NCBI GenBank assembly: GCA_949299335.1
Contig: CASGAD010000017.1
Span: forward strand, 764 to 64,763
Direction: 5' to 3'
Source: an uncultured bacterium
GTDB taxonomy: Bacteria > Bacillota_I > Bacilli_A > RFN20 > CAG-826
DNA length: 64,000 nt
Below the pieces are notes generated by a model. That model did not search any database. It saw only the letters and a program-made list of their open reading frames with translations, and was not told where the DNA came from. Below are positions 24,365-51,712 of the stretch, one piece after another (the stretch's first letter is position 1; the number at the start of each line of letters is the position of its first letter). The position numbers and the translations under genes were made by a program.

Positions 24365-24376
24365 TAGGTAAATACA

Positions 24377-33287: not shown

Positions 33288-33288
33288 G

Positions 33289-33318: not shown

Positions 33319-33525
33319 ATTTTATGAAACTTAAATTTTAATTCGAGTAAATTTAAAGAAATTTCTAGTTTTTTACTGATAGAGTCTTTATTAGGGTCAA
33401 TTTATGTCATCATTAATCATAAAGAGTGTCACTATTTTGTTATTTTTATGATCTATGGTTAATTAAAGCTTATGATTTTAGCTAAAAATATTACCTTTTT
33501 AAGAAAGTTAGATTATATCTAAAAA

Positions 33526-33555
33526 TTGACAAAGCATATTTTTTAGGGGTATCAT
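33526..33555 (+). promoter_or_regulatory. sigma-70-type promoter candidate for the 17-kb operon (TTGACA - 18 nt - TATCAT)
   Basis: -35 at 33526-33531 and -10 at 33550-33555. This would give a 5' UTR of roughly 185 nt containing nested inverted repeats (TAAGACTT/AAGTCTTA and ACTATT/AATAGT). Confidence 0.4.
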
Positions 33556-33746
33556 TAAGTCATGAAAAAAGTAAAAGGGCTTAAATAATTATTTGGATAA
33601 GCAAAAAGCAATAATAATTTAAGTTTTAAGACTTACTATTCTGAAATTCCTTAGTAATAGTATGTTTAGAAAGTCTTACTTATGGGGTAAAAAAGATAAC
33701 ATATTAAAAACCTCAAGAAGTTTCTATCTTAATGGAGGAGTATAAG

Positions 33747-34559
33747 ATGAGAAAATTAAAATCGGCAAATAAAAGAAAATGGATTGTCGGAGGAACGGCT
33801 TTTTTCCTTGGAGTGATGGTATTATCGACAGGTTTTGCGACTTGGATCATCGGTATCAATGTTGCTAGTGTAGATAATGGTGGCACAAACGCAATCGTAG
33901 ATGGAACTAAAAGTAATAATTTTGAATTAAAGGTAGATTTTACAAGAGATAATAGTATTATTGTGACTGAAAAAACAAGTTCTGATAGCCCTGCTAAAAA
34001 AGGCAATTTTACATTTGTAAACAATGGATATAAAGTAGATGAGGAATATAAAGACACAGACTTTATTGTATCTGGAACAATAACTTTAACTATTGGCAAT
34101 AATTCTGATTATTATGGCAAATCAATAGAGATAGTTCCTAGTTTTAATTATAGTGAACAAGGTGGAAAAATAGATGTCGATGATGAAAATAACGGCACTG
34201 ATAATAATAAGATTGATAATTATGAAGTTACATCGTGGAGAAATGCAGGAAATTATGAATATTTAGGTTTATGCGATTCAATAGAAGTGCCTACTAAAAC
34301 TAATGGCAATTGGACTGTTACTGATGATGGAACTAATATAGTTTACAAATTTGATGGAGAAATTGAGTTATTTAAGCGGGGCTCATATTTTAGTAATATG
34401 AAACCAAGTAAGTTTTATACAAGAACAACTACACCTGATTTTGTTGTTGATGGCGAAGCGTCAACCAAAATTGCTGCCGAAATGAATAAAATGGAAACGG
34501 CATTAAATGGAAAAAATATCCATGTTATATTAACAGCGCAAGCTAAGAAAGGCAATTAG
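33747..34559 (+). CDS. exported protein, paralog 1 of 5 (SipW-class-like signal peptide)
   Basis: ATG 33747 follows GGAGGAG. N-terminus MRKLKSANKRKW plus a hydrophobic helix ending GFATWIIG. The C-terminal region GSYFSNMKPSKFY matches the family motif. Confidence 0.75.
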   Translation: MRKLKSANKRKWIVGGTAFFLGVMVLSTGFATWIIGINVASVDNGGTNAIVDGTKSNNFELKVDFTRDNSIIVTEKTSSDSPAKKGNFTFVNNGYKVDEEYKDTDFIVSGTITLTIGNNSDYYGKSIEIVPSFNYSEQGGKIDVDDENNGTDNNKIDNYEVTSWRNAGNYEYLGLCDSIEVPTKTNGNWTVTDDGTNIVYKFDGEIELFKRGSYFSNMKPSKFYTRTTTPDFVVDGEASTKIAAEMNKMETALNGKNIHVILTAQAKKGN

Positions 34560-34571
34560 CATAGGCTTTTT

Positions 34572-35363
34572 ATGAAAAGCAAGAAGAATACAAAAATTTT
34601 GGGATTATGTATCTCATTTGCATGTGTTGCAATTGGTACTATAGGTTTATCAACATGGCTTATTGGTGTTGAGGATACAAAAGAAGAATTAAGTTTAACT
34701 TTAAGCGTTGATAACGTTAATTCAACTAGCTTGATTCTTGAGGCAACGTTTGAAGATGATCAAACTATAGCAATTGCAGAACGTGTCTCATATACTAAAG
34801 GAAGTAATGATATTATTGGTACTGATGATAAAGGTGGACTTAGTATTTCAGAAAACTCTTTATCATTTTCTTTTTCTGCTTTAAATATTTATACAACTGA
34901 TGAAAATTTTGATTTGAAAAAGTATAAATTGACAATTGATGTCGCTTTGCCAGAAGAGAATAAAATAAGTGTTAAAGAAACTACTAATTCCACTACAGTA
35001 TTTCATCCAAATGAAACTGATTTTAACTATTTAACTTTTAACACAATTTCATGGGGAGGCGAAAATCTCAGTAATAAGATTTCGAAAGATAACGATTATA
35101 CTTCATCAAACGGATTATATAGATATCAATTAAATAATGGTGAGAATAATTTTAAACTGGAATGGGGCAATTTTTTTGAGCAGAAATCGCCTGTAAATTT
35201 TTATAATGAGAAATATCATGTTGTATCATCAACGTTAACCGCAGAAGAAAAAGTTTCTTATGTTAACGCGGCTGTTAATGAAATAACTACAATGAAAAAC
35301 AGATTGGAGGATGCGACTGTAAAAGTAACAGTTACGCTTGAGACTTATGAAAGCCAACAATAA
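34572..35363 (+). CDS. exported protein, paralog 2 of 5
   Basis: N-terminal basic region plus a helix ending GLSTWLIG. C-terminal FKLEWGNFFEQKSPVNFY. Confidence 0.75.
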   Translation: MKSKKNTKILGLCISFACVAIGTIGLSTWLIGVEDTKEELSLTLSVDNVNSTSLILEATFEDDQTIAIAERVSYTKGSNDIIGTDDKGGLSISENSLSFSFSALNIYTTDENFDLKKYKLTIDVALPEENKISVKETTNSTTVFHPNETDFNYLTFNTISWGGENLSNKISKDNDYTSSNGLYRYQLNNGENNFKLEWGNFFEQKSPVNFYNEKYHVVSSTLTAEEKVSYVNAAVNEITTMKNRLEDATVKVTVTLETYESQQ

Positions 35364-36099
35364 AAATAAAAAAATAATTTTTATTATCTCTTCCATTATG
35401 TGTGTTTCTGTGCTTTCTGTTGGATTATCAACATGGGTTGCAGGAATTGAAGTTAAGAATGATTCTGATTATGCAACGATTGAAGTTGATAGTGTTTCGA
35501 ACCAATCTAAATTTTTAGATATTGTATTCGCAAATGGTGAAAAGATAGTATTATCTGAAAATACGACTGGTGATGTTTGGAAAAATGATGGGTCAGAAGC
35601 TGATTTCGAACTTGATATATCTTCTAGTAGAGTAATGCTTGGAAAGGGATTAAGTGGTAATTCGCCAACCGTCTCATTATCTAAAATTGAGTTCAATAAA
35701 GAAAATTTCACTTATAATAATATAAACACTGGTATTTTTTATAATAATAATGGCAGCCAGTTATCTTATATCAAATTGAAATCTAGTTATCAAGAAATAA
35801 CATGTACTCAAATATCAGAAAATGACTTGTCTGAATCTGAAAAGAATTTGTCTACTAATTATATTTTTTATAAATTGGACACTACAAAGATTGAATTCGA
35901 ATGGGGCAGTGCGTTTAATAATGAATCGCCATGTACATATTTAAATGATGAATATAGTAAATGGATCGGAGGCGAAGGAGTTGATTCAACGAATTTAGAC
36001 AAAGCTCAAAAAATTGCTGATCAAGAAAATTTTTTAAATGTTTTTAAAAATGCTTTTGATAGCTTAAAAATGACTTTCTTTTTTACATTGAATATTTAA
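35347..36099 (+). CDS. exported protein, paralog 3 of 5
   Basis: ATG 35347 (MKANNKNKK) is preferred; the track's start at 35338 is TTG. The helix ends GLSTWVAG. C-terminal IEFEWGSAFNNESPCTY. Overlaps paralog 2 by 17 nt. Confidence 0.75.
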   Translation: MKANNKNKKIIFIISSIMCVSVLSVGLSTWVAGIEVKNDSDYATIEVDSVSNQSKFLDIVFANGEKIVLSENTTGDVWKNDGSEADFELDISSSRVMLGKGLSGNSPTVSLSKIEFNKENFTYNNINTGIFYNNNGSQLSYIKLKSSYQEITCTQISENDLSESEKNLSTNYIFYKLDTTKIEFEWGSAFNNESPCTYLNDEYSKWIGGEGVDSTNLDKAQKIADQENFLNVFKNAFDSLKMTFFFTLNI

Positions 36100-36100
36100 T

Positions 36101-36925
36101 ATGATTAAACCAAAGCTGAAAAATAATAGAAATTTTGTTGTTATTACAACGTTGATAATGATTGCTTTAGTAAGCGTTGGTTTTTCAAGTTGGATTGCAG
36201 GAAATGGCGTGACAAGCAGTAACACATCTACAATGATTAATATGGAAATCGTTGCAAATCACGTAGTTTTTAGCGAAATAATACCTTATCAAAAGAGTGA
36301 AGATGGAACTTTTGAAAAAGTTGATAAAATTGGGGATATTAAGTTTGCGCCTGAAAATGATGTGATTGATGGTGAAAGCACAAGTAATTCGAATAATGTT
36401 GAAATTCCTATTGAAATTGAACTAATTGTGTCTAATACATTAAAAATTACCCAAATCGAAATGAATTCTAATATTTCCATTGGGGATACAGTAAATAATA
36501 CTGAAGCAGGAGCTTTTAATGATATAGAAATAACAACCAAAAACTTTTTTGACAGGGAAATTGGTAAATATCAATATATATGTTTGTCTGATGTAGATAT
36601 CGATATAACATCTTTGACATATGAGGATTATAAAATTGAAGGAAATGCTACCAGTTATAAAAAATATATTATTGATTTGACAGATAAACTCCAAATAAAT
36701 TATGGAAATTATTTTAACAATCAGTCACCACAAGAATTTTATAATAATGCAATAGGATTAGCACTTAGAAATTATCAGGCAAATCAAACAGAAGATAATA
36801 AAAATAAATATCTGCTTACAGTTCAAGAAGCATATAAAGAATTAGAACTGATGAGGGAAAAATTAGGAAGTCAGAAAATTAATATAGAATTTACAGTGTC
36901 AACTGAAGAATTAAGTGAGGTATAA
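36101..36925 (+). CDS. exported protein, paralog 4 of 5
   Basis: The helix ends GFSSWIAG. C-terminal LQINYGNYFNNQSPQEFY. The start lies 1 nt after the previous stop. Confidence 0.75.
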   Translation: MIKPKLKNNRNFVVITTLIMIALVSVGFSSWIAGNGVTSSNTSTMINMEIVANHVVFSEIIPYQKSEDGTFEKVDKIGDIKFAPENDVIDGESTSNSNNVEIPIEIELIVSNTLKITQIEMNSNISIGDTVNNTEAGAFNDIEITTKNFFDREIGKYQYICLSDVDIDITSLTYEDYKIEGNATSYKKYIIDLTDKLQINYGNYFNNQSPQEFYNNAIGLALRNYQANQTEDNKNKYLLTVQEAYKELELMREKLGSQKINIEFTVSTEELSEV

Positions 36926-36927
36926 AT

Positions 36928-37608
36928 ATGAAAAAAAACAAAAGCAAAAAAATGGTATGGATTGTAAGTTTACTTACATGCGTCGGGATTGGAACACTTG
37001 GTTTTGCTAGTTTCATTTTAGGAGGTGTTACTAGTGCAACAGAACAAGTCACAATTAATGTCGGTGATGTAGTAGATAATGCAGTCGTAACTAAAATTAG
37101 TGAAAATCCAGACTTGAATATTTCATTTGATTTTAAAAACAATGGTTTAAATGAAAGTATTACTAATGGAGATAATAAAACAGAAGATTTAGAGTTTTCC
37201 TTTACATTTACAATCTCAGCGAATAAGTCTCTAACTGAATTATTGCAAAATGTTACAATTAAATTCACTGCTAACGATGATTTATTATCTTATTCTAATG
37301 GAAATTATGTTAATTTGCCTTTTACAAATTTATCAGAAAATTCCATAACAATTGAGACTAAAGAGACAACAATAAGTGGAACAAATAATGCCAAAACTAT
37401 TGCTAAATCTACATTAAATTCAAACAACATGACCTTAAGCTGTGAGGTTACTTCGACATTTGAATGGGGATCTGAATTTGATAATAAAAATCCATGTGAT
37501 TATACTGCTACTGGATGGGAAAATAAATTAAGAACATTTGGAAATTTGAAATCTCAACATAGTAATCCAAAAATTGAAGTTTTAATTCAACCAAATTTGA
37601 AAGCTTAA
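36928..37608 (+). CDS. exported protein, paralog 5 of 5
   Basis: The helix ends GFASFILG. C-terminal STFEWGSEFDNKNPCDY. A8 and A7 tracts occupy codons 2-8. Confidence 0.75.
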   Translation: MKKNKSKKMVWIVSLLTCVGIGTLGFASFILGGVTSATEQVTINVGDVVDNAVVTKISENPDLNISFDFKNNGLNESITNGDNKTEDLEFSFTFTISANKSLTELLQNVTIKFTANDDLLSYSNGNYVNLPFTNLSENSITIETKETTISGTNNAKTIAKSTLNSNNMTLSCEVTSTFEWGSEFDNKNPCDYTATGWENKLRTFGNLKSQHSNPKIEVLIQPNLKA

Positions 37609-37611
37609 TAT

Positions 37612-38688
37612 ATGGATGGTATCGAAATAATATCGCTTTTAGTAACAATTATTTGTTTATTGAGTTTTTCAATAGTTTTTACTTTTCTTTTTAGACATTA
37701 TTATTTAAGTAATATTGACAAAGTGGTAAATGGACAATTTGATTTTGATTTGATTGATATGGCTGTAATTAGGGAACAAGAAAAAAATAACAAAAGTAAA
37801 AAAGTTTGGAATATCATTAAGAACGTTTTTAGTTATTTATTTCTTGCTATTGTGTTAATATTTTTTGGATTTTCTGTTTACTCTAGAGCAACAGGAAGTT
37901 TAATATCAGTCAATAATACAAGTTTAATTGTTATCGCAACGGGCTCTATGAGTAGCAAAAACAGCTATAATGATTATCTTTTTGATAGTGATTTAAGAGA
38001 AAAATATAACTTAGATAATCAATTTAAAGCCTATGATATTATTGGAATACAATCTTATGGTATTAATGAAGAACCACAATTATACGATGTAATAGCATTT
38101 CATGGCAAAGATGGACAAATTTATGTTCATAGGATTATAACAATTAATGATAATGGTTATGTTACTAGAGGTGATACAAACTCAATTAGCGATACAAATC
38201 AGTTATATGATGGCTATTTGCAAAAGGAAAATATAATTGGCTATTATAATGGAATTGATATACCAGCTGTAGGTATTTTTGTCGTTTTTCTCCAATCCAA
38301 TTCAGGAATTATTACAATTGTTTCAATCATATATTGTCTAATTATGTTTGAACATTTTAAAAATAAATACGAAGATGTAGCTGATAAACGTACTAAGTTG
38401 CTTTTGGAAACATTAGAATATAGTTTAGATACTGATGTTGAAGCTGAAAAGAAGATGTTAAAAGAAGATTTTGATTGTATTTTATTCAACGGATATAGAT
38501 TTACCTTCTCAAGTAATAAGTTAATAAAAAAGGAAGAACTTGGTAATGAAGAGTGCGCATTAGTAAGTGAGCATATAAAATCTTTTGACAATAATGACAA
38601 CAGCAAAGAAAAAAGTGGTAGTTCTGAGAATAGATTCTTAAATAAAATTAAAAAAGTTTTTAATAAAAATAAAACCAAAAAAGATTAA
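37612..38688 (+). CDS. sipW: SipW-type (S26B, ER/archaeal-type) signal peptidase I with extra N-terminal TM region and a roughly 110-aa C-terminal tail
   Basis: Catalytic-Ser box IVIATGSMSS, His box IYVHRIITI, and TRGDTNSISD. These align with B. subtilis SipW motifs (SGSMEP, THRV, KGDNN..D). A TM helix follows the catalytic domain as in SipW. 358 aa total. Confidence 0.8.
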   Translation: MDGIEIISLLVTIICLLSFSIVFTFLFRHYYLSNIDKVVNGQFDFDLIDMAVIREQEKNNKSKKVWNIIKNVFSYLFLAIVLIFFGFSVYSRATGSLISVNNTSLIVIATGSMSSKNSYNDYLFDSDLREKYNLDNQFKAYDIIGIQSYGINEEPQLYDVIAFHGKDGQIYVHRIITINDNGYVTRGDTNSISDTNQLYDGYLQKENIIGYYNGIDIPAVGIFVVFLQSNSGIITIVSIIYCLIMFEHFKNKYEDVADKRTKLLLETLEYSLDTDVEAEKKMLKEDFDCILFNGYRFTFSSNKLIKKEELGNEECALVSEHIKSFDNNDNSKEKSGSSENRFLNKIKKVFNKNKTKKD

Positions 38689-38708
38689 TTATATAAAGGA
38701 GAACTCAT

Positions 38709-40523
38709 ATGAAAACTCATTTTACAAGAAAGAACTTCATAGCAATAGCAATAATCTTTTTCTATGTATTGCTAGCGTTATTTAGTGGTCTTTGCATTGA
38801 TTCAATTAATCCTGTGTTGAAGGCAAATAATCCTATTCAAAAGATGGGATTAGCATTAGGATTTCCTGCTAATAATCCAGGATTCTGTGGATGGATATTT
38901 TTAGGGTGCGTTTCCCTTTATATCCTCATTTTTGCCGCAGCTTTTATATATGAAATGAGATTGGCAAAATACTATGAAAACAAAATTTTTACAAAAAAAT
39001 ACTCATTAATTTATCTATTAACTTTTTTAATTATATTTGGTGTTGGAATAGGGATTGCGTTAGCTGCTCAATATCCTTATGATCCTTCCTTTATGTTTAA
39101 TTCTTTCTTATTCGTAGTTGAGAGTTTGGTAATTGGGCTTTTAATTTTTCTCATCCTTGGATCAATTATAATGTTTGGCATCATGTTATATGTTAATTTT
39201 AAACATATCGATGAGCCATTTAGATTTTTTGGAAATAAAGTTAAAAATCAAGAACTTGATGAAGAAGCACAAGAGGAAGAAAATGAACAACTTCTTGAAG
39301 AACAGGGCAATCTTTCAGCTAGTTTTGGGGAAGCTTCTGGAAATGATAATAACTTTAATGGTGCTATTGCCGGTGGACAAGGAGGCAATGGTGAGGTTAA
39401 TCTCGGCAACGAAACAGTATTAAAAGATAAAGAGCGTGTATTTCCAGGATTATGCTCGATTGACTATTTCTCAATGTCAAAAGTGGACGAAGAATTTGAT
39501 GATGTTACCGACTTATCATTTTTATGTACTCAATTTAGAAATTATTTAGCAAAAAACGAAAAACTATATTTTGATATCGGAACAATAAGAGCTTTTATTT
39601 CAGGATTGGCGGCAAGTAGATTTATTATTCTTGAAGGTTTAAGTGGTACAGGTAAATCATCACTTGCTAGATACTTTAGCGATTTTATTGGAGAAGAGTC
39701 TTTCTTTGAGGCAGTACAAGCTACTTGGAGAGATAGAACGTCAATTCTCGGGTATTATAATGACTTTTCAAAAACTTATAATGAGACAGAATTTTTAAAG
39801 AGATTATATTCATCAACATTTAAGGATAATCATATAAATATAATGGTTCTAGATGAAGTCAATATTTCGAGAGTTGAGTATTATTTTGCAGACTTTTTGT
39901 CAATTTTAGAGTATCCAGTTGATAAGTGGGCTTTAAAAATTATGCAATTGCCATATGATTTTGATGCTCCTGAACATTTACAAGATGGTATATTAAAAAT
40001 TTCACCTAATACATGGTTTATTGGAACTGCGAATAAAGATGATTCAACATATACTATTACTGATAAAGTTTATGATAGAGCTATTACAATTTCTTTTGAT
40101 GACAGAAATGAACCTTTTGATGTGTTGGAAGATGTTAGTAAACTTAGAATTTCGTTTACTAAATTACAAGAATTATTTGCTGGAGCAACAAATAACGCTA
40201 AAAATAGATTGACAACGAGGGATTTAGAGAAATTTTCTATTATCACAAATTACACCTATGATACGTTCGATTTAACTTTCGGCAATAGAATTATGCGCCA
40301 AATCGAGACATTAGTACCAGTTTATGTCGCTTGTGGTGGCACAAAAGAAGAAGCTTTAGACTTTATGTTCTCTAAGAAAGTTCTTTCAAAACTTGATGGA
40401 AGATTTGAAGACTATATTAAAAAAGGTTTAACAAACCTAAAATCTCTTATTGAAAAAACCTATGGTGATGAATCGTTTAAATTATCAAAACATACAATCG
40501 ATAAATTAGTAAGAAAGTTATAG
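38709..40523 (+). CDS. McrB-family AAA+ GTPase fused to an N-terminal four-TM membrane domain
   Basis: AAGGAGA lies upstream of the ATG. Residues 1-165 form about 4 TM helices, followed by an acidic and G/N-rich linker. Walker A is EGLSGTGKSS. Walker B plus the McrB signature reads MVLDEVNISRVEYYFADFLSILE. The GTP-specificity-like segment is FIGTANKDDSTYTITDKVYDRA (NKxD). Confidence 0.7.
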   Translation: MKTHFTRKNFIAIAIIFFYVLLALFSGLCIDSINPVLKANNPIQKMGLALGFPANNPGFCGWIFLGCVSLYILIFAAAFIYEMRLAKYYENKIFTKKYSLIYLLTFLIIFGVGIGIALAAQYPYDPSFMFNSFLFVVESLVIGLLIFLILGSIIMFGIMLYVNFKHIDEPFRFFGNKVKNQELDEEAQEEENEQLLEEQGNLSASFGEASGNDNNFNGAIAGGQGGNGEVNLGNETVLKDKERVFPGLCSIDYFSMSKVDEEFDDVTDLSFLCTQFRNYLAKNEKLYFDIGTIRAFISGLAASRFIILEGLSGTGKSSLARYFSDFIGEESFFEAVQATWRDRTSILGYYNDFSKTYNETEFLKRLYSSTFKDNHINIMVLDEVNISRVEYYFADFLSILEYPVDKWALKIMQLPYDFDAPEHLQDGILKISPNTWFIGTANKDDSTYTITDKVYDRAITISFDDRNEPFDVLEDVSKLRISFTKLQELFAGATNNAKNRLTTRDLEKFSIITNYTYDTFDLTFGNRIMRQIETLVPVYVACGGTKEEALDFMFSKKVLSKLDGRFEDYIKKGLTNLKSLIEKTYGDESFKLSKHTIDKLVRKL

Positions 40524-40527
40524 TCAT

Positions 40528-42740: not shown

Positions 42741-44347
42741 TGGTAATTGAATTAATAAGAAAAGAACATCTTGAAAGAAAAGAAGTAACATCAAAAAGCA
42801 AAGTTGCTAATATTTTCTCTTTACTATTAAAAGTTATATTTATTGGCTGTTTTATTGCTTTGGAGTGCTATATATTCTTTTCTTTAGACAAAAAAATAGA
42901 AAAATATTCCGAATATGGAACATTTGATTTTTTGGTCCTCTTTTTGTTTACAATGATGATTGTTAGTATTATTAGTTCGACAGTTAGAGCGAGGAAAACA
43001 CTTTTTAATCATTTAGACAATAATGTTCTTTTGCCGCTGCCAATTTCTACTGGAGAATTAATTTTTAGTAAAATTTTATACATCTATTTGCAAGAAGTTG
43101 TGACACATTTTATTGTTTCAACACCTATTTTAATTGTGTTTGGTTCTACTAGAATGTATATCCCTTACTTTTATGTATTTTCTATTTTATATCCATTACT
43201 AATTAGTTTATTTAGTGTAGGTTTAGCGTTGTTTTTTGTTGTAATATATCAGTTTATTTATCAATTAATTAAATTAAGTGATATAGTACAATTTATTTTA
43301 GCATCGATTTTAGTTATAGGATTGTGCTTCGTTTATCAAGTTGTTTTAAACTTATTTTTAAACGCACTAAGGGATTCAATGATTGGTGGTGTATTTGATA
43401 AAAACTTTATTGATTCATTGCATAACTCCTTATACTATCTTGTACCAATTTATTATTTGTTTGACTCTGTTATTAATGGCACAAACATTCTTTCTAATGT
43501 ATGTATTTTGCTTGGTTCAATCATCATTTCATTATCGTTAGGGGTTACGATTTCTAGTGTTGCATACATCAAATTAAGCAAAAATGAAATTGACTTATTT
43601 GTTAAAAGAGAAAATCAAAAAGAAATTAAAATGATTTCTCCATTTAGAATGTTATTAAAAAAAGAATTTGACATCATTTTTAAAGACAGTGGAAATATAT
43701 TTTCCTACACATCACTATTGATTATGGCTCCTTTTTTAACATATGTTGTTATTTCTAGTTTAAACACAGTCCTATATCAATCTTTAACTCAATTTTTAGT
43801 TTATTTTCCTGAGTTAATAAATGTCATTAACATCAGTTTAATAATATTATTCTCAAGTGTTATTAATAGCAGTGCATCATTATCAATGTCTCGTGAAGGA
43901 AGATGCATTCAAATAGTAAAATATATACCTATTTCACCTTTTAAACAAATATTAGCTAAATTAATAATACCAACTAGTTTATCTATTTTTTCTCTATTAA
44001 TTACTATAATTGTGATTGGAAGTTCTGGAGTAGTTTCTCCATTAGCAACATGCATGTCATTACTGATGGGTATTTTATTAATTGTTTCAAATAATATTTA
44101 TGCAATTTATATTGATATGCATGACCTAAGCGATTTCAATAATAAATTACTATTTATTAATGAATTAATATCAATAGGATTCCCTGTTTTAATCTTAACA
44201 TTTAACTTTTTAATGATTTTCTTTGGAGTCCCTTCTTATGGTATGTATCTATTATCAATTACTTTATATATAGTTTTATTTGTATCAAGTATTATTAAAA
44301 TGAAAAGTAGATCAACCAAACTTTTTAAAAGGATGGAGGTAAGATAA
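42737..44347 (+). CDS. polytopic membrane protein, presumed permease partner of the ABC ATPase
   Basis: 536 aa with at least 12 hydrophobic helices. An ATGA overlap with the ATPase gene. No named family recognised. Confidence 0.6.
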   Translation: MMVIELIRKEHLERKEVTSKSKVANIFSLLLKVIFIGCFIALECYIFFSLDKKIEKYSEYGTFDFLVLFLFTMMIVSIISSTVRARKTLFNHLDNNVLLPLPISTGELIFSKILYIYLQEVVTHFIVSTPILIVFGSTRMYIPYFYVFSILYPLLISLFSVGLALFFVVIYQFIYQLIKLSDIVQFILASILVIGLCFVYQVVLNLFLNALRDSMIGGVFDKNFIDSLHNSLYYLVPIYYLFDSVINGTNILSNVCILLGSIIISLSLGVTISSVAYIKLSKNEIDLFVKRENQKEIKMISPFRMLLKKEFDIIFKDSGNIFSYTSLLIMAPFLTYVVISSLNTVLYQSLTQFLVYFPELINVINISLIILFSSVINSSASLSMSREGRCIQIVKYIPISPFKQILAKLIIPTSLSIFSLLITIIVIGSSGVVSPLATCMSLLMGILLIVSNNIYAIYIDMHDLSDFNNKLLFINELISIGFPVLILTFNFLMIFFGVPSYGMYLLSITLYIVLFVSSIIKMKSRSTKLFKRMEVR

Positions 44348-46819
44348 ATGAAAAAGAAGACTCTTATTATTTTATTAATTATTCCTTTTGTTATTGGATT
44401 AATATCTTTTGTTAGCGTTGTTTTATTAAATATTACGGTTGCTAGTGATATTAGTGGAATTGATTTTGATTACCGTGAACAAGAAGGATTTAAAATTAGA
44501 GATGCTGGGTATGAATTAAAAGCTACTCCAGTAGTAAGTGACATATTAATTTTAGCACCTGATAATGATTTAATGTGGTATGTAAAAGAAGAGACTAATG
44601 TAGCTAAAATCGAAGAAGATGAAGAAAATAACTATTATTTATTTGCTTTAGAAGAAGGTGAATGTACAGTAGTTTGCTCAAACGTTAAAAAGAGCGTTCA
44701 AAGGGAATTTAAAGCTATAATTTATGAAAACGGAACAATATTAATTAATCCTACTAGAACTCAAAGCGGTCAACAAGTTGAATCAACTCGTTATTACGGA
44801 TTGTATGATTTAGAGTATGATGAAGTGAAAATGGATGGAGCTAAAAAGGTTAATTCAACTATTGAATTTGATATAGATGTCGTAGGAGACAATGTAAAAA
44901 CTGATAAGGTTAGTGTTTTAGATAAGAGTGATAATTTAACTTATTCAAATAATGTGATAACGATTAATTCTTATGCTGAGAATTCTTATGTGACTTTAGT
45001 AAGTGTTGATCAACCATTCATTTCTAATACATATACATTTAAACTTGTTAAAGATGGTGTAAATGTCTATGACTACAATGATTTATTAATGTGTACAAAC
45101 TTCTCAACTATTGGAGAAATTGTTGTTATGCAAACTTCTTTAGGAAGTTTAAGAGAAGTATATGTAGGAAAAGATGTTGAAATTGATTCCACATATACAA
45201 GCCAGGGCATTTATAAGTATGAAATAGATCCATCATTTACTAAAAAAAGTGGCAATATTAGTTTATTTGGTAATTATGATGAAAAGAGTGGAACATTTAA
45301 TTTTGCTAATGAATTAGTTTATATTGAAACTAGCTATAACCATAAATTTATAGATGATTATAACGCAAATCGCGGGACAAATATTTCTACAGAAGTAAAG
45401 GTAGGCATAAAAGTACAAAAAGATTTCTATGGAAATGGTTTTTCAATCAATATGAATAATTTATGTTTCCCAAATAATGGTAGTATTGACATCAATCTTA
45501 AAAAGTTAGCGCCTGATTATGAAAAAGATTATTTCTTTGGCCCACTTGCTTTCGTGACAATAGGAGATCCTAGTGGGAACCAGCCATTTGTTAAAGCTTA
45601 TGGTCAAGACAATGCCGGAATGATGCTTAAAGGAAATGGAATTATAGTCAACGACTTAAGAATACAAAATATTGATGATAACTCTAATAAACGCAACTAT
45701 GCTTTTACTGGAACTGTTATTGAAGTAAAAGGTGATGACATAACAATTAAAAATTCAACTGTTAAATTAGGCAAGAATTTAATTAGTGCCTTCGATACTA
45801 AAAATCTCACTATTAAAAATTGCATTTTAACTAGAAGTAGCGAATTTAATTTAAAAGTAGGCAGTAATCAAATTATGCCTTATGATAACAGTAAAGTCAT
45901 TGATGTCACAATTGGTGGCACAAAATATAGTGTCCCATTTGATGAATTCTTTGATATTAATTCAACTAACATTGCTTCAGCTAATATGATTTTGGAAGAG
46001 TTTCTTGGTGCAGGCAATGGAATTTTCTTAAATCAAAGAGAAATGTTTGAATCATTAAGAATTTTGCAAAATGCTTTAAATAATGAATCTTATGATGAAG
46101 ACATATATGCTAGCGAAGTCATTGTTGAAGATGTCTTGTTTGATGACTCTGGATTATTTTCAATAGGTTTAGAAACTGAATTTAATGGGCCTTTTTTGTA
46201 CAATGGTGGTTCCCAAACTTTAGTTTCGACATTAGGCGGAATGCTGCAAAGTGACATACCAAATAAGATAGGTGGAACATCTCTTCCTTCTAAAGTTACA
46301 ATTAAAGGAAAGACAAAATTCTATGATTGGAAAAAGTATACCGATATCGATACAACCAGTTTAATAGAAGAGAGAATTTCTGTTTTTGCATCAAGTGCAT
46401 TGGGACAAGATATCGAACTCTCAATCGATGACTTCTTTCCAATGAAACCTATATTAAAGGATATGTGTAAATCAAAAGGATATATTTATACTAAAGATAA
46501 TGAAGAATATATTAATACAATAATTGCGTATTATGGAGGAGGATTAAATAATTCAATTGTAATAAAAGAGATTGAAAATGCTGAAAATACTTTTAGCGAT
46601 GACATATATGTTGATTTATTGACTAATATCGATAAATATGTTGCATCAATAGATGGTGGAAGAATTGATTCTCTAATTAAAATCTTATCTAAATGTGTTC
46701 TTTTTGCAGCAGGCTTTGAGCCTTTTAAATTTATTACAAATGGAAAAGTGACACAAAATGTTGACCCTGAATTATTTAACGAAAATCCACAAATAAGCGA
46801 TTTAAAAGCTAATTTATAA
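44348..46819 (+). CDS. 823-aa membrane-anchored or exported protein with Ig-like and parallel beta-helix-like regions
   Basis: The start abuts the previous stop (TAAATG). The N-terminal helix ends IGLISFVSV, a variant of the locus motif. NLTIKNCILTRSSEFNLKVGSN and ITIKNSTVKLGKN resemble PbH1 repeats. Confidence 0.6.
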   Translation: MKKKTLIILLIIPFVIGLISFVSVVLLNITVASDISGIDFDYREQEGFKIRDAGYELKATPVVSDILILAPDNDLMWYVKEETNVAKIEEDEENNYYLFALEEGECTVVCSNVKKSVQREFKAIIYENGTILINPTRTQSGQQVESTRYYGLYDLEYDEVKMDGAKKVNSTIEFDIDVVGDNVKTDKVSVLDKSDNLTYSNNVITINSYAENSYVTLVSVDQPFISNTYTFKLVKDGVNVYDYNDLLMCTNFSTIGEIVVMQTSLGSLREVYVGKDVEIDSTYTSQGIYKYEIDPSFTKKSGNISLFGNYDEKSGTFNFANELVYIETSYNHKFIDDYNANRGTNISTEVKVGIKVQKDFYGNGFSINMNNLCFPNNGSIDINLKKLAPDYEKDYFFGPLAFVTIGDPSGNQPFVKAYGQDNAGMMLKGNGIIVNDLRIQNIDDNSNKRNYAFTGTVIEVKGDDITIKNSTVKLGKNLISAFDTKNLTIKNCILTRSSEFNLKVGSNQIMPYDNSKVIDVTIGGTKYSVPFDEFFDINSTNIASANMILEEFLGAGNGIFLNQREMFESLRILQNALNNESYDEDIYASEVIVEDVLFDDSGLFSIGLETEFNGPFLYNGGSQTLVSTLGGMLQSDIPNKIGGTSLPSKVTIKGKTKFYDWKKYTDIDTTSLIEERISVFASSALGQDIELSIDDFFPMKPILKDMCKSKGYIYTKDNEEYINTIIAYYGGGLNNSIVIKEIENAENTFSDDIYVDLLTNIDKYVASIDGGRIDSLIKILSKCVLFAAGFEPFKFITNGKVTQNVDPELFNENPQISDLKANL

Positions 46820-46831
46820 GAGGTAAAAGTT

Positions 46832-47956
46832 ATGAGATTTAAAAAAATTAAAAAAATGTGCTTAACTCTAAGTATATTGTTGGGAAGCGTTTCAATTTCT
46901 AGTTGTTCTGCCTTTTTTGGTAGTGACGAGTTAAATATATCAAGCACTGATATAAAAACTGATGATAATGGCAACACAACAGTAACTATTACTTTTACTG
47001 ATGAGAGCAAAAGCCCTTTAACTTTTACAATTCCTAGTGCAATTAACGGAGAAGATGGTGTTGGTATCGCAACGGTAACAAGTGAATTAAGTGAAGATAA
47101 GACACTTGTAACTATAATAATTACATATACTGATTCAAACAGAGAACCAACTGTTATAACGGTTCCTGTTTATAAAGGAGAAGACGGAAAAGAAATAACT
47201 AATTTTATTTGTAACTATGATGAAGATGGAAATACGACAGTAGTTGTTGAATATAGTGATGGCACATATAGTGACGAATTTACTATAAAAAAAGGTGAAG
47301 ATGGAAAAGGAATTAGTAATATAATTATGAATTCCGATCAAAATGGTAACTATGAGATAACAATTGTTTATACAGATGGCACATCCGAGGAACCTATTTA
47401 TTTAAATTCAGGTGTTGGCATTGCTTCTATTATTTATGATGAGAGTAAAAGTGATGAAGAGTACTATTGCTTAGTGGTTTATTACACTGACGGAAATAGT
47501 GAGGAAATTTATGTCCCAGCTCCACAATCCACTAAGTGGCTGAGCGGAAATGCCTATCCTTCTAATGATTTGGGAAATGAAGGAGACTTCTATGTAATAG
47601 AAAGTAGTGGAGCTGTTTATAAAAAAACTGGTGGAACATGGAGATATTTATTTAGCATTAAAGGCGTTGGAAGTGATTTAACTTATACAGTCACTTTTAA
47701 TCTTAACGGAGGAAAGTGGATAAACGGAGATTTAACAAATCCAGATATATCTTCAACTGAAGTAAGAACAATTAGTGGATTAGCATATGGCGCTTTTATT
47801 GATTTAAATCAAGATAATTTGAAATGTTATAATGAAGATGAAAACTTAGATTTTAAAGGATGGTGGAGTGATGCTGTGATTACACCAAATTCTGGTCATT
47901 TTACAAATTTAACTGCTGTTACTAAAGATCTTAGTTTATATGCGATTCGGGGGTAA
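46832..47956 (+). CDS. lipoprotein with about five 45-50-aa GEDG-containing repeats and a C-terminal Listeria-Bacteroides (Flg_new) repeat
   Basis: Lipobox SISSC. Repeats read GEDGVGIATVTSE.../KGEDGKEITNF...EYSDGT/KGEDGKGISNI...VYTDGT. The C-terminus TYTVTFNLNGGKW...LDFKGWWSD matches the Flg_new pattern. Confidence 0.7.
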   Translation: MRFKKIKKMCLTLSILLGSVSISSCSAFFGSDELNISSTDIKTDDNGNTTVTITFTDESKSPLTFTIPSAINGEDGVGIATVTSELSEDKTLVTIIITYTDSNREPTVITVPVYKGEDGKEITNFICNYDEDGNTTVVVEYSDGTYSDEFTIKKGEDGKGISNIIMNSDQNGNYEITIVYTDGTSEEPIYLNSGVGIASIIYDESKSDEEYYCLVVYYTDGNSEEIYVPAPQSTKWLSGNAYPSNDLGNEGDFYVIESSGAVYKKTGGTWRYLFSIKGVGSDLTYTVTFNLNGGKWINGDLTNPDISSTEVRTISGLAYGAFIDLNQDNLKCYNEDENLDFKGWWSDAVITPNSGHFTNLTAVTKDLSLYAIRG

Positions 47957-47959
47957 ATA

Positions 47960-48703
47960 ATGATCGGTAGAAAGTCCAATAAATGTACATTGATTGTAAT
48001 TGCAATTGCTAGTAGCATTTGCCTTTTTAGTTTTGGATTTTCAACTTTTATTATTGGTGAAGAAGCTGGTCAAAAATCAACTGATATTCAATTCAATTAT
48101 GGAGATGTAATAATATCTAGTGATTATCTTTCGTTAAATACTGCGAAAGGTGATGGTACTAAATTGCCATATACAGGAATTAGTATGTTTAATTATAATT
48201 CTAGTGGATTTGTAGTTAATGAAACTATGATGTTTAGTACTTTCATTACATATTATGTTAGATTTGATGTAGTATCTTTTTATAAAAATTATAGTGAAAA
48301 TATTGTAAATTTCTCACTAAATCTTTCATATGCAAATGCGTCTCGAGATAATTATGCATTGTTGAGTTCGAGTTATTTTGATCAAAATTCTTCAAGTGTA
48401 AAGTATTATAGGGGTACTAGTGGTTCTTATTTTTCGAGTGCAACTATAAACACCGGAATAAGTAATGAAAATTTTTTAATTGATGATATCAATAAGAAAA
48501 TATCATTTTCCTTTACTTATGAGTTTACTCCAAATGACTATGCAAATACTAACACTATGTGTCGGTTTGAATTTAAGTTTTCATTTAATGCAAATGACAA
48601 AGCATCTTTTGATTATCTGTATAACAATGAATTTCATATAACTGATAGCAATCTCGAACAATCTAGTTATAGATTAAGTGTAGGAATAAATTATGAAGAT
48701 TAA
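47960..48703 (+). CDS. exported protein with the locus signal-peptide motif (not a close paralog of the first five)
   Basis: N-terminus MIGRKSNK plus a helix ending FGFSTFIIGE. The body is rich in S/N/Y/F and beta-like. Confidence 0.65.
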   Translation: MIGRKSNKCTLIVIAIASSICLFSFGFSTFIIGEEAGQKSTDIQFNYGDVIISSDYLSLNTAKGDGTKLPYTGISMFNYNSSGFVVNETMMFSTFITYYVRFDVVSFYKNYSENIVNFSLNLSYANASRDNYALLSSSYFDQNSSSVKYYRGTSGSYFSSATINTGISNENFLIDDINKKISFSFTYEFTPNDYANTNTMCRFEFKFSFNANDKASFDYLYNNEFHITDSNLEQSSYRLSVGINYED

Positions 48704-50345
48704 AATAACTAAAAAACATAGAAACACTTTTCTTGCTCTTTTAATTTTATTTTTAAGTATAGTCGTTTCCTGCATAGTTGGCTTTGGCAATTTTCTAGTT
48801 TCAACTGACATCTCTAGTGGCAGTTCAGGTAATATTGTTAATGATCCTGTTTGCTATAATTCGAATACTGGAATTTATTACACCACAATTGAAAAGGCAC
48901 TTGAAGATGCAAATATAAGGAGTGACGCGGATACAATTATTGTTTTGCCAGGAACGAATCCTACTATTACAAGAAATTGTACAATAAGTTCAAACGATTC
49001 ACTAATCGTATCATACGATGATGGAGGAACAAGAGGAAATTGGAACGCCGCAGATGATTTTTATAGTGGTAATACTTATCATAATAAAACAGTTACATAT
49101 GTGAGTACTGTTACTATTTCAGAAGGGATTTCTTTAACAAATTACGGCTTAATAGAAAATTATGGTGAAATTGTTGCAGCTAGTGGAAATCAGCGGGGAG
49201 GATTTCCTGCTAGAAATTGTACTCAATTTTTACTTGAAGCAAATGCTAAAATTTTAAATTATGGTACTATAAATGGGTTTGGATATTTTAATGAGTCATC
49301 AAGTAATAATGGTTCCGAAATTATCAGTTATAGTGGCAGTATTATTCATTTGCCTTTTTCAATTTTATTCAGAGGAGGTACTGCGACAGTTGCTTTAACT
49401 GGCGGTCTTGGCTTCATAGTAAGTATTGTTAGCGATTTAAGTTCCTCCAAAATATTTCCATTTGATCAATATGAGATAACAAATATTAGTACTAATACAG
49501 TAATTTATAGTGGCTGTTATATTTATGCACATTTTTGTTTTAATTTATCAGACTCTGTGTCAGGAGATTCTCGTAAATCTTTCACAGCGCAAATAAACTT
49601 AGTCGGGGACAAAAATTTATCAAATTGTCTATTTAAATTGCATGATAATTCATTTATGAACATGAAGTATAATGGTGTGGAAAACGGAATAAATCCAATC
49701 AAACTTGATTTTTATGGCGGAATGGATATGGAGGAAGTATCTATTACTTTGAATTTGACCGTTTCCGGTATTTCAGCTTCTAGAACATTAAATAGTTCTG
49801 AGTATTATTTTCCATTTTGTTATAATATGAACATTTCTCTCAATGCCTTAGATGAAGATAGCGGAGCAACTTATAATTTTGATAATTTATTAAAATTTAT
49901 GCCAGGTTCGTCACTTCTTGTTAACGAAAGAGTAACATTGAATTTAACAGGCACTACAGTTGTGTATAAGGATGTTTCTAGTGAATATGTTGGGGCTTTA
50001 TATAAATCTGGATATGGTGATGCAAATTTTGTAATTTTAGGTGAGGTGTATGCAAATAATTTTGCAGGATTTGTGTCAACTGATTCCAATGGTTCTCTAC
50101 TCTTAGTTAGTGGAAGTTCTTCTGTCACAACACAAGAATTAGTTAGTAATAATGATGAGGCAAATTACTATACGTACACAAATAATGCTAGTGCTTTTAT
50201 AAATAACGAAAATAATTTGGAAAATATAAAATCAAATTTTTTATATGAAGGTAGAGGGAAATACTGGATTGAATCGTCGATTGTCTTAATTAAGCAGAAA
50301 AATATTGAAAGTATTACAATTTATGATAACTCTGGCAGGTATTAA
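48693..50345 (+). CDS. 550-aa exported beta-helix-like protein; its frame continues past a single TAA into the next ORF
   Basis: The N-terminal helix ends VGFGNFLVS. YYTTIEKALEDANIRSDADTIIVLPG resembles the N-terminal cap of right-handed beta-helix proteins. Overlaps the previous gene by 11 nt. Confidence 0.6.
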   Translation: MKIKITKKHRNTFLALLILFLSIVVSCIVGFGNFLVSTDISSGSSGNIVNDPVCYNSNTGIYYTTIEKALEDANIRSDADTIIVLPGTNPTITRNCTISSNDSLIVSYDDGGTRGNWNAADDFYSGNTYHNKTVTYVSTVTISEGISLTNYGLIENYGEIVAASGNQRGGFPARNCTQFLLEANAKILNYGTINGFGYFNESSSNNGSEIISYSGSIIHLPFSILFRGGTATVALTGGLGFIVSIVSDLSSSKIFPFDQYEITNISTNTVIYSGCYIYAHFCFNLSDSVSGDSRKSFTAQINLVGDKNLSNCLFKLHDNSFMNMKYNGVENGINPIKLDFYGGMDMEEVSITLNLTVSGISASRTLNSSEYYFPFCYNMNISLNALDEDSGATYNFDNLLKFMPGSSLLVNERVTLNLTGTTVVYKDVSSEYVGALYKSGYGDANFVILGEVYANNFAGFVSTDSNGSLLLVSGSSSVTTQELVSNNDEANYYTYTNNASAFINNENNLENIKSNFLYEGRGKYWIESSIVLIKQKNIESITIYDNSGRY

Positions 50346-50378
50346 GAGAATAGGGATTATATTGATGCGAACTTAAAT

Positions 50379-51053
50379 GTGACAATCAATATCAAATACG
50401 CTGATTTACCTAATAAGAAATTAATAATAAATGGTGTTGATTATTCGTCTTCCATTACATCAACAGAATACTCTATTAATTTAACTATTGGGAATGGCGG
50501 GTTAATTATTGAGGCATATGCTGGCGTGTATACTTTATCTGTAACAACTTATAATGCAAGTTTCAGCATTATTGATGAAGAAACAAATTCTTATGGTAGT
50601 GGCGATGATATAGTTTATGGAACGAATTTAACTTTTAAATTCTCTTGTAATGAGACTGTGTCTAGAGTTATTATGAATGGCCAAATTTATAATTATACTG
50701 ATACAGAGGAATGTGCTATGGGTACATTTAATATTCAAGTAACTGGCGATATTAATATAACTATTATTTCCGGAATAAGGAATTTAAGTTCCAATCTTAG
50801 TACTAATTCTCGGTTATACACTTATGAAGTAACAGGACCTGGTTTCTTAAGCGATTCTGAGATAATACTGCATCAAGGTTTAAATATTTACTATAAACGT
50901 TCGTTAACTGGAAGCAAGAAATTAACTGTTACTAATAATGGGGATGTGGAAGTAGAACAAACATATAGCCCTACTACTGGTTCATTTGGAAATGTTGAAA
51001 TAAATTATTCTATAGCGTCAGTAAACGGGGATGTAAACATTAATATTTCTTAA
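50379..51053 (+). other. 224-codon ORF in the same frame as 48693-50345, separated only by TAA 50343-50345. Either the C-terminal part of a nonsense-interrupted gene or a GTG-initiated gene.
   Basis: 48693 and 50379 share a frame. No ATG and no SD lie ahead of GTG 50379. There are 11 sense codons between the TAA and the GTG. Confidence 0.4.
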
Positions 51054-51712
51054 TAAAGTTAATAATTAGGTAATAAAATAGTTGTATAATAGATTTTTAT
51101 TAGCTTTGTAAAATTACTGCAAATATTTTTATATTATTAGTAATACTTATCTTATGTTTTCGAATTTATTTGTATAGAGATTTTTTATTGTTTTCTAAAA
51201 TTTAAATTCAGAGGGTTGTGAACTTGTCTTTTTTAAATTTCAACGATTTTATTCAAATAGCATGACTTAAAAAAATTACGTCGTTTTGAATCTTAGTACT
51301 TTTTAGTTATTGTAGAGATAATTTAATTGTCTCTTTTGTAACCTTATTATTTATTTTTCCGTATTTATTAAAGCGAATAAGGCAATAATAATATAGACTC
51401 CATCTGAAACTAAAATTTCAAGCCATTAACTATCATTAGTAATACCTAAATATTCTAATAAAGATCCATCAACCAGTTTAATAATAACTTATGAACTTAA
51501 ATTAATGGTATCTTGATAAAAAAACTTTAATTTTTACTAAGTAAGCAAATACAAAGTTAGGATTAAAAATACACTATATTTAAATATTAAAAATAGTTCT
51601 TGGATAGATGAAACCCCGACATTAATTAGCAATCATTATTTTTATTTTCATCATTAGATTATTATCAAAAAGAAGAGTTGTTTGATATAATTAAACCAAT
51701 AGGTGAATTAAT

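Follow-up and report, generated by a model that had tools for sequence, protein, structure and literature searches.

The subject of this report is a 17-kb operon in a stretch of 64,000 nucleotides (nt) of DNA from an uncultured bacterium (contig CASGAD010000017.1 of assembly GCA_949299335.1, positions 764 to 64,763), which we refer to as the window and whose numbering we use throughout. The window is AT-rich (about 27% GC), and on its plus strand an unbroken run of open reading frames (ORFs) extends from 33.7 to 51.1 kb. The run consists of fourteen tightly packed genes and a doubtful fifteenth ORF. Exported proteins, several of them with a common end to the signal helix, are encoded there together with a SipW-type signal peptidase, a membrane-anchored McrB-like GTPase and its McrC-like partner, an ABC exporter and a lipoprotein. 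We give a probability of about one in two to the reading that this is a lineage-wide envelope operon of RF39-type Bacilli for the construction or upkeep of a proteinaceous surface structure, of which a fibre or matrix of fast-evolving paralogs is the likeliest form. The fourteen genes are the following.

33747-34559, plus strand: P1, the first exported paralog, 270 amino acids, with a signal helix that terminates in TGFATWIIG
34572-35363, plus strand: P2, a paralog with the signal end GLSTW
35347-36099, plus strand: P3, a paralog with the signal end GLSTW
36101-36925, plus strand: P4, a paralog with the signal end GFSSW
36928-37608, plus strand: P5, a distinct paralog class with the signal end GFASF, always directly 5' of the peptidase gene
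37612-38688, plus strand: enlarged SipW/Sec11-type (S26B) signal peptidase, 358 amino acids
38709-40523, plus strand: membrane-anchored McrB-like AAA+ GTPase, 604 amino acids, with four transmembrane (TM) helices (residues 10-158)
40528-41943, plus strand: McrC-like partner, 471 amino acids, with DUF2357 (McrC N-terminal) and a C-terminal CxxC...CxxC zinc ribbon
41940-42740, plus strand: ABC ATPase of the DrrA/GldA-like ABC-2 type (ABC_tran 3e-26; DrrA and GldA subfamily matches under cut-off)
42737-44347, plus strand: polytopic permease of the "putative ABC exporter" families, 536 amino acids, about 11-12 TM helices (11 segments predicted)
44348-46819, plus strand: conserved 823-residue protein with a signal anchor that lacks the GFSxW motif
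46832-47956, plus strand: lipoprotein, 374 amino acids, with a lipobox (...SSC, then SAFFG) and three GEDG-type repeat units
47960-48703, plus strand: P6, an exported protein of 247 amino acids with the signal end GFSTF, a distant member of the motif class without the FxWG motif
48693-50345, plus strand: exported protein of 550 amino acids (big550) with the relaxed motif VGFGNF

An earlier note on this DNA, made from the sequence alone, had called the five paralogs, the enlarged peptidase, the four-TM GTPase, its zinc-ribbon partner, the ABC pair and the GEDG-repeat lipoprotein, and we confirmed all of these calls. It had counted fifteen same-strand ORFs between 33747 and 51053; the reading frames are present, fourteen of them as genes, and the fifteenth (last224, discussed below) is the doubtful one. 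Each junction was inspected. Those among genes 1 to 14 measure 12, -17, 1, 2, 3, 20, 4, -4, -4, 0, 12, 3 and -11 nt, where negative values are overlaps. Thirteen of the 14 junctions are therefore overlaps or gaps of 0-20 nt, as had been stated for the whole run, and the exception is the step from big550 to last224, with 33 nt. The finer details described earlier are all in the sequence: ATGA overlaps at 41940 and 42737, by which the ABC ATPase gene is translationally coupled on both sides; TAAATG at 44345-44350; and overlaps of 17 and 11 nt at 35347 and 48693, the former being that of P2 and P3 with the start of P3 taken as the ATG at 35347. Internal terminators were sought within the operon and none was convincing. 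The argument from packing to a single transcription unit is supported by these close junctions, by the absence of a convincing internal terminator and by the gene order in related genomes.

A scan for the GTPase pattern in one genome per GTDB species gave 66 loci, in which gene presence and order were established by tblastn and ORF-level BLAST. The loci come from metagenome-assembled genomes labelled Ca. Onthovivens, Enteromonas, Enterosoma, Mollicutes and Bacilli, with some "cleanbin" records evidently mislabelled. NCBI taxonomy places Onthovivens in the Bacilli, and we take Onthovivens, Enteromonas and Enterosoma to be members of the GTDB order RF39. A separate search of word-indexed proteins yielded more than 3,500 homologs of the GTPase; the top 120 were full length with 58-68% identity, and the named ones among them came from Ca. 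Onthovivens and "Bacilli bacterium".

The canonical order of paralogs, peptidase, GTPase, DUF2357 partner, ABC ATPase, permease, 823-residue protein and lipoprotein was found in 62 of 63 loci, the sole exception (L065:106-2874) having a second AAA_5-domain protein of 923 amino acids 5' of the operon. When only loci with enough flanking sequence were scored, the peptidase was present in 56 of 57, the DUF2357 partner in 60 of 60, the ABC ATPase in 57 of 57, the permease in 53 of 53, the 823-residue protein in 49 of 49 and the lipoprotein in 48 of 48. Identities to the window proteins range from 51 to 69% for the GTPase and from 53 to 80% for the ABC ATPase, which is among the most conserved products of the operon, down to 25-44% for the partner and 21-35% for the exported paralogs. 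The number of paralog genes 5' of the peptidase varies from 1 to 7; usually there are two (one P1-type and one P5-type) or six to seven. A conserved cytoplasmic and membrane machinery beside divergent, copy-variable paralogs is a pattern typical of surface-exposed structural subunits. The flanking genes of the window are shared only with the closest relative, locus L012, which indicates that selection acts on the operon unit itself. The test that the earlier note had proposed, co-occurrence and order of the gene families in other genomes, was thus passed decisively, and by this comparison of gene content and order the operon is a conserved, co-inherited unit and not a chance juxtaposition.

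Several exported proteins of the operon are marked by a motif, G[FL][SA][STN][WFY], that closes the N-terminal hydrophobic helix. It is carried by P1 to P5 and by the 247-residue P6, and the relaxed form GFGNF makes the 550-residue protein a seventh member. The earlier note had counted eight proteins with a shared signal end; seven remain, and the 823-residue protein is without the motif. Among the 66 ORFs of at least 80 amino acids in the 64-kb window, six have the motif and all six are inside the operon. The same confinement is seen in the 66 related loci, where 155 of 1,560 ORFs bear the motif after a hydrophobic stretch and virtually all of these belong to the operon or adjoin it on its strand. 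Alignment of motif-bearing helix ends on the Trp (n = 160) gave the consensus (V/I)-(S/A)-L-x-(T/S/G)-(V/T/I)-G-F-(S/A)-(T/S)-W-(I/V)-(I/V)-(G/S/N), with conservation that reaches positions outside those used as the search criterion.

P1 to P5 form a genuine, very divergent family, with pairwise E-values of 1e-9 to 1e-3. The family profile has GFxxW at the N-terminal end and, in the C-terminal part of the mature proteins, FxWGxxFxxxxPxxxYN followed by a final amphipathic strand. P1 belongs to an orthologous "LLTTGFATW" class (P1-type) whose gene comes first in most related loci. A P5-type gene stands directly before the peptidase gene in about 50 loci, including minimal loci with only two paralogs. 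At least 13 other loci encode, in the position of P6 behind the lipoprotein gene, motif-carrying proteins of 206-246 amino acids.

The class of the 550-residue protein is less regular. Its homologs have 445-1085 amino acids, of which about 500 at the N-terminal end are conserved while the C-termini vary, and the gene changes place between loci, being found upstream, downstream, or between the peptidase and GTPase genes. An example of the last arrangement is L014:7326-9980 (also L022 and L025), where a gene for an 884-residue exported protein is inserted between the two; this insertion in one sublineage indicates that the peptidase/GTPase junction tolerates a substrate-class gene. Two homologs, L011:4061-7315 and L030:1100-3649, have Hint or Hom_end_hint modules (residues 863-891 and 619-647), and one of them has Big_2 in addition. 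Hint-type cassettes on proteins with GFSxW signals recall autoprocessing or polymorphic-toxin-like C-terminal modules.

The signal peptidase matches TIGR02228 (3.7e-13) and the SipW family NF046067 (2.1e-12), in both cases under the curated cut-offs. Its residues S112, H173 and D188 are invariant in 27 homologs. From hydrophobic segments at residues 9-27, 72-90 and 222-240 we infer that the catalytic domain faces outward, that the protein has one TM helix more than usual at its N-terminus, and that a C-terminal tail of about 118 amino acids lies in the cytoplasm.

In the GTPase, the TM segments, which AlphaFold2 models as long helices, are followed by an acidic helix of about 30 amino acids (177-205), a disordered Gly/Asn-rich linker and the AAA+ domain. 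The window protein has the Walker A sequence GLSGTGKSS, the Walker B sequence MVLDEVN and the signature T-A-N-K-D-D-S; GLSGTGKSS and MVLDExN are invariant. In the genome loci the signature is T-A-N-K-D-[D/E]-S-T, with 34 NKDD, 17 NKDE and 1 NRDE and an invariant D at N+2. NKDD alone could be read as NxxD as well, as it is in a HMMER alignment to E. coli McrB, and we assign the signature to NxD on the strength of the NKDE and NRDE members. The best sequence match in the PDB is E. coli McrB, which is weak (E 0.16) although Walker A, Walker B and signature align; the Pfam AAA_5 match (7e-4) falls short of the gathering cut-off. Foldseek places the model in the MCM/BrxL/RavA/McrB clade of AAA+ folds, with McrB at ranks 25 and 32 and with the highest sequence identity. 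Since these individual lines are partial, the family-level assignment to McrB leans on the DUF2357 neighbour.

DUF2357 was detected in the window partner at 2.4e-6; of 27 homologs 22 have it, the best at 1e-8. Invariant residues of the partner are C427, C430, C444 and C447 of the zinc ribbon, which is the only part that matches the PDB, and W103-K104-x-K106. The 27 partners had no match to nuclease families and no conserved D...(D/E)xK motif beyond residue 150. The GTPase also matches the PADLOC candidate family PDC-M26A strongly (1.6e-32), a further partial line for its McrB identity. We rejected membership of that candidate system, given that the GTPase core alone matches and the partner has no match at all.

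An ABC_tran protein with an adjacent polytopic permease is what defines an ABC-2-type exporter, and both genes are found here. Family matches of the permease are weak (PF09847, 12TM_1; and, in one homolog, PF16949, ABC_tran_2). The 823-residue protein had been described as beta-helix-like. Weak Pfam Beta_helix matches were obtained for 5 of 23 homologs (best 4.7e-5) and none for the window protein, and a sequence profile search of the PDB with this family gave no match; the protein possibly contains a right-handed beta-helix, as the matches of its homologs would suggest. The lipoprotein has a C-terminal Listeria-Bacteroides (Flg_new) repeat (9e-4; 3.2e-5 in the L012 ortholog), and its Cys-Ser-x-F-F motif is conserved in related loci.

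When a GTPase profile was run against 1.84 billion cluster representatives, 8,468 clusters proved to be related, of which 934 reached E <= 1e-30. The top 150 all carry T-A-N-x-D-[D/E]-S and have three architectures: about 45 have four TM helices and the GTPase domain, others are TM-free with a long N-terminal extension (CoCoNuT-like), and in the third set the GTPase domain is preceded by one or two TM helices and then some 200 amino acids. Locus L072, from a lineage with 46% GC, retains the SipW-type peptidase, four-TM GTPase, DUF2357 partner, ABC ATPase and permease. In L070, L073, L074, L075 and L077 the four-TM GTPase and DUF2357 pair is found alone, without peptidase or ABC transporter, and in the first three of these it adjoins genes for capsule or exopolysaccharide (Wzz, a CpsD-like kinase, glycosyltransferases, CapD, Bac_transf). 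The L073 partner (1158 amino acids) is fused to a GNAT acetyltransferase domain, and another stand-alone partner ends in a zinc finger.

The most informative relative is L079:3217-11157 (NCBI GCA_028748505.1), where the order is TM protein, exported protein, SipW-type peptidase, GTPase, McrC-like protein and a second SipW-type peptidase. The signal of its exported protein ends in ...ASFAWFS; the GTPase is of the TM/coiled-coil type with NNDD; and the McrC-like protein has YENRF and a long coiled coil of AEEARL repeats. Both peptidases, the GTPase and the partner have charged or coiled-coil cytoplasmic segments. Between the window and L079 the GTPase is 39% identical over 359 amino acids (E 3e-87), the peptidase and DUF2357 are recovered by profile at E 3e-15 and 1.4e-7, and the peptidase, GTPase and McrC-like genes are in identical order. 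Genes for GGDEF and EAL proteins flank L079, which hints at cyclic di-GMP or biofilm control. In two further loci, TM-anchored NxD GTPases are linked to giant surface proteins: L078:4475-11585 has two tandem AAA_5/DUF2357 pairs (492 + 668 and 517 + 669 amino acids) directly 5' of a giant ORF that exceeds 3,176 amino acids, and in L068 such a pair lies between LRR_5 proteins of 2,750 and 290 amino acids.

The earlier note had not recognised this combination of genes as a described system. A class of this kind has in fact been named. Bell et al. (eLife 2024; PMC11090510, section 7) recognise a branch of McrB GTPases with an NxD motif, "usually followed by E or a second D", and name two derived groups, CoCoNuT and CoCoPALM. 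The latter comprises NxD-type McrB GTPases tied to signal-peptidase genes, in a clade linked to pilus assembly, and its description was deferred (PMC11090510). Our literature search for a follow-up on CoCoPALM, for the window operon type or for RF39 surface structures found no paper. The statement of the earlier note is only partly right.

L079 is an exemplary case of CoCoPALM as published. The window operon agrees with the published description in the NxD(D/E) signature, N-x-D-[DE] being present in all near relatives, in a membrane-anchored GTPase followed by a DUF2357 partner without a detectable nuclease, and in a SipW/archaeal-type peptidase directly upstream (as in L072 and L079) with genes for exported proteins before it. 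It differs in the membrane part of the GTPase, where an FtsB-like single or double TM segment with a coiled coil gives way to four TM helices and a short acidic helix, and in that the partner ends in a zinc ribbon rather than a long coiled coil. Unlike the partners of L068 and L079, the window partner had no match to coiled-coil families in scans against family models. The window has one peptidase where L079 has two; it adds the ABC ATPase and permease, the 823-residue protein and the lipoprotein; and it has its own family of GFSxW substrates, unrelated in sequence to the L079 substrates. Judged by the published description, by the 39% GTPase identity to L079 and by the order of bit scores among the related GTPases, the window operon is probably a four-TM, ABC-equipped variant of this named but undescribed CoCoPALM class.

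Several better known systems resemble parts of the operon. As in tapA-sipW-tasA of Bacillus subtilis and sipW-bsaA of Clostridium perfringens, a dedicated SipW-type Ser/His peptidase is encoded beside its private substrates. The tapA-sipW-tasA operon also has substrates with signal helices that end in a small-residue/Trp box (presumably GGGTW-A in TasA, against GFSTW in the window) and a logic of major and minor subunits. The window peptidase differs from SipW in being nearly twice as long, with its extra N-terminal TM helix and cytoplasmic tail, and the known operons are without a GTPase, a McrC-like gene or an ABC transporter. An NTPase-driven machine of type IV pilus proteins has been suggested to help BsaA oligomers across the wall in C. 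perfringens (PMC11580942). The mention of McrBC in the same paper is part of an E. coli strain genotype and is no link to this system.

With McrBC of E. coli (PDB 6hz4, 6ut6) the pair shares the AAA+ core with Walker A, Walker B and Asn/Asp signature and a partner with DUF2357. A four-TM anchor takes the place of the DNA-binding N-domain of McrB, the signature is NxD and not NxxD, no PD-(D/E)xK nuclease was detected in the 27 partners, and the pair is conserved and vertically inherited in an envelope operon and not in a defence island. CoCoNuT systems (PMC11090510) share the NxD branch, supply TM-free relatives with long extensions to the nearest matches, and often have McrC homologs with an inactive nuclease or none. 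They are cytoplasmic, their constant partners are HEPN or other nucleases, and a role in RNA-targeting defence is predicted for them; the window has no such partners. The analogy to type IV pili and type II secretion is functional: an N-terminal membrane helix on the subunits, a dedicated peptidase and a cytoplasmic NTPase, presumably hexameric in the window, at a membrane platform. There is no homology; the window peptidase is of the S26B type, probably acting on the outer face, and not an aspartic prepilin peptidase, the motif is at the end of the helix and not at its start, and the NTPase is a McrB-type AAA+ protein and not PilB-type.

Of the two hypotheses in the earlier note, a peptidase-processed fibre or pilus-like apparatus is still the best reading. 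It is strengthened by the fixed gene order, by the confinement of the motif proteins to the operon, and by the recurrence of the substrate, peptidase, McrB-like and McrC-like arrangement in L079. On this reading, P proteins and the larger motif proteins would be exported by Sec and held in the membrane by an N-terminal helix with the end (S/A)-L-x-x-(V/I)-G-F-(S/A)-(S/T)-W-(I/V)-(I/V). The SipW-type Ser/His/Asp peptidase, with its active site on the outer face, would then recognise this box, cut at one of two places, behind G-F-(S/A) or behind W-(I/V)-(I/V)-(G/S), and free the subunits. The freed subunits would assemble at the surface, perhaps with P1-type proteins making up most of the structure and the P5-type protein nucleating it or contributing in small amounts, and the lipoprotein and 823-residue protein could be anchor or accessory parts. 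By analogy with McrBC, the GTPase may form a hexamer, with four TM helices per protomer, that is activated by the McrC-like partner inserting into the ring. By analogy with the coiled-coil tails in L079, it could be a motor or gate on the cytoplasmic side, coupled through the N-terminal TM helix and tail of the peptidase. More speculatively, the ABC-2-type exporter might clear the cleaved signal peptides or export another matrix component.

A number of results weigh against a fibre or matrix. The weakest point is polymerisation of the P proteins, which got no support from the structural model, from Foldseek, from the PDB profile search or from comparison with TasA. The AlphaFold2 model of P1 is beta-rich with a C-terminal helix and strand, and has a mean predicted local distance difference test score of 60 (low confidence). 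Its poor quality can be attributed to an alignment of only 16 sequences; the homolog search of word-indexed proteins had given 5 matches with P1 and 10 with an 86-sequence profile. Foldseek of this model against the PDB had the type 1 pilus subunit FimA as its best match, which is not significant (E 0.09, probability 0.23), and we do not count FimA as evidence for the fold of P1. The PDB profile search with the P family returned noise only, and the family has no match in Pfam, Peptidase_M73 included. When the P profile was compared by hhalign with an approximate TasA sequence, the signal ends alone aligned, at 3% probability, which we take as a lead and no more; the family has no detectable sequence similarity to TasA or camelysin, which sets it apart from the substrates of tapA-sipW-tasA and sipW-bsaA. 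The profiles TIGR04088-04090, which the earlier note had suggested checking, are not borne out either, as none of the seven motif-bearing proteins has an NCBIfam match at E <= 0.1. The two small-residue boxes of the motif, after GF(S/A) and after W(I/V)(I/V)(G/S), leave the possible cleavage site ambiguous. TasA-type fibres form without an NTPase, so that a GTPase step in fibre assembly is without precedent. Finally, the four-TM GTPase/DUF2357 pair stands alone in other lineages, and its core role may be something other than the handling of protein subunits.

A bolder form of the fibre proposal, which we put forward as a possibility that is on balance doubtful, is that a nuclease-less, McrBC-derived GTPase ring with a four-helix anchor is the motor or gate of a new Gram-positive surface-filament pathway. 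In such a pathway a peptidase coupled to the ring may free the GFSxW-tagged subunits and the ABC exporter may complete the machine, the whole being a core RF39 feature. It would differ from sortase pili, type IV pili, chaperone-usher pili and the spontaneous polymerisation of TasA.

The strongest competitor, which we nevertheless consider unlikely, is a system for display or for quality control of secretion. The P proteins and the large beta-helix-type proteins would then be monomeric variable adhesins or enzymes with a private tag, matured by the peptidase, with the GTPase and ABC transporter regulating the processing or clearing signal peptides. The high divergence and varying copy number of the paralogs, like those of variable surface antigens, would fit this explanation, as would the lack of a detected pilin-like fold in the low-confidence P1 model and by Foldseek. 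The tag is also shared by proteins of 445-1085 amino acids with Big_2 and Hint, which fits a general sorting signal better than one for pilins only. What it does not explain well is the constant pairing of P1-type and P5-type proteins beside the peptidase, even in minimal loci, which resembles major and minor subunits. The C-terminal amphipathic strand and FxWG are conserved in all the paralogs and suggest a shared assembly interface, and the only literature on the related class (PMC11090510) indicates pilus assembly.

A polysaccharide or glycan matrix seems improbable. The beta-helix proteins would be glycan-active, the ABC-2 transporter would carry a glycan or lipid-linked intermediate outward, and synthesis of an envelope polymer would be regulated by the TM-GTPase pair. 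The stand-alone pairs of L070, L073 and L074, which adjoin genes for capsule or exopolysaccharide and of which one has a GNAT-fused partner, point in this direction, although three neighbourhoods are a small sample. DrrA/GldA-type ABC-2 ATPases often export glycans or lipids, and the weak Beta_helix matches would also be in keeping with such a role. However, family scans found no glycosyltransferase, polymerase or flippase in the operon, and its strongest conserved linkage is that of the peptidase with the motif-bearing proteins.

The second hypothesis of the earlier note, an embedded defence module, fared badly. In its general form it would be a membrane-associated defence or conflict module that senses invading DNA or envelope damage, with the remaining genes as effectors or as an unrelated matrix operon, and we regard it as very unlikely. 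The GTPase is in the NxD branch that includes the CoCoNuT defence systems, it has the PDC-M26A match given above, and the pair is a portable two-gene module in other lineages. Against this, the 27 partners have no nuclease or effector domain and no conserved catalytic motif, the window partner has no PADLOC match, and four TM helices replace the usual DNA-reading N-domain. The pair's presence in all 60 scored loci, in a fixed position and coupled to its neighbours, is the opposite of a patchy defence island, and no methyltransferase or mobile-element genes are present. That independent transcription units came together by chance could be argued from the many promoter-like hexamers in the AT-rich DNA of the window, but the idea is effectively refuted by an order that is held despite deep divergence and differing flanks, by the close junctions without a convincing internal terminator, and by the recurrence of the core from peptidase to permease in L072.

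Human and animal guts commonly harbour RF39-type Bacilli, whose genomes are reduced and which have never been grown in culture. We know of no account of their attachment or of the making of their surface. An operon of 17 kb that is kept across the genomes of related species probably has a central part in their envelope biology and host contact, and it is an experimentally untouched, conserved feature of an abundant uncultured gut lineage. If the fibre or matrix reading is true, the operon is a clear case of a restriction-system motor (McrBC) exapted for a membrane or assembly task. The CoCoPALM idea gains a concrete system with many sequences, in which the substrate tag (GFSxW) and the peptidase are defined and the two proteins of the GTPase module are open to purification, and the private signal motif can be used for predicting exported proteins of the apparatus in metagenomes. 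A genome survey has predicted mostly peptidoglycan walls for RF39 species (PMC10868615).

The 5' boundary of the operon lies in 1063 nt between the first gene and the upstream gene, and the main feature of this interval is the following.

33526-33555, plus strand: candidate sigma-70-type promoter TTGACA-18-TATCAT, 11 of 12 consensus positions, about 190 nt before the first start codon

This candidate, already pointed out in the earlier note, is the top-scoring plus-strand promoter match within 32600-52000. Promoter-like matches as a class were not enriched over shuffled sequence, and the candidate is to be read as a consensus match only. The ATG at 33747 is preceded by GGAGGAG. The same note had described the 1.06 kb as non-coding; its length stands, but it holds a 66-residue ORF at 32825-33025, called as a gene in L001 (a contig identical to the window), and a terminator-like hairpin at 33288-33315, with a 12-bp stem and then a T run, that closes the upstream unit. 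An Rfam scan of 32680-33760, which includes the 5' leader, gave no credible RNA element. On the 3' side, 659 nt follow the last ORF, in agreement with the 0.66 kb noted before.

The last ORF itself is the doubtful member of the run.

50379-51053, plus strand: last224, doubtful fifteenth ORF, 224 amino acids, GTG start, in frame with the 550-residue gene beyond a single TAA

It has no Shine-Dalgarno sequence, no signal peptide and no homolog among the 66 related loci, and its status as an independent gene is doubtful. The sequence across the junction (48693-51053) reads ...YDNSGRY*ENRDYIDANLNV..., the two frames being one TAA and 33 nt apart. As homologs of the 550-residue protein vary at their C-termini, the 224-residue piece may be a split-off or read-through variable C-terminal module.

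The operon is flanked by ordinary chromosomal genes, for GH2 and MFS proteins upstream and for LacI, phosphofructokinase and ribonucleotide reductase downstream. The immediate upstream neighbour (30161-32683) encodes an 840-residue protein without a Pfam match that is kept only in L012 (58% identity). The downstream neighbour (51713-53212) encodes a predicted lipoprotein of 499 amino acids with a divergent InlB B-repeat (Flg_new_2). Surface proteins with a Big_2 domain are encoded at 22334-25840, and the chromosome region around the operon is rich in surface proteins.

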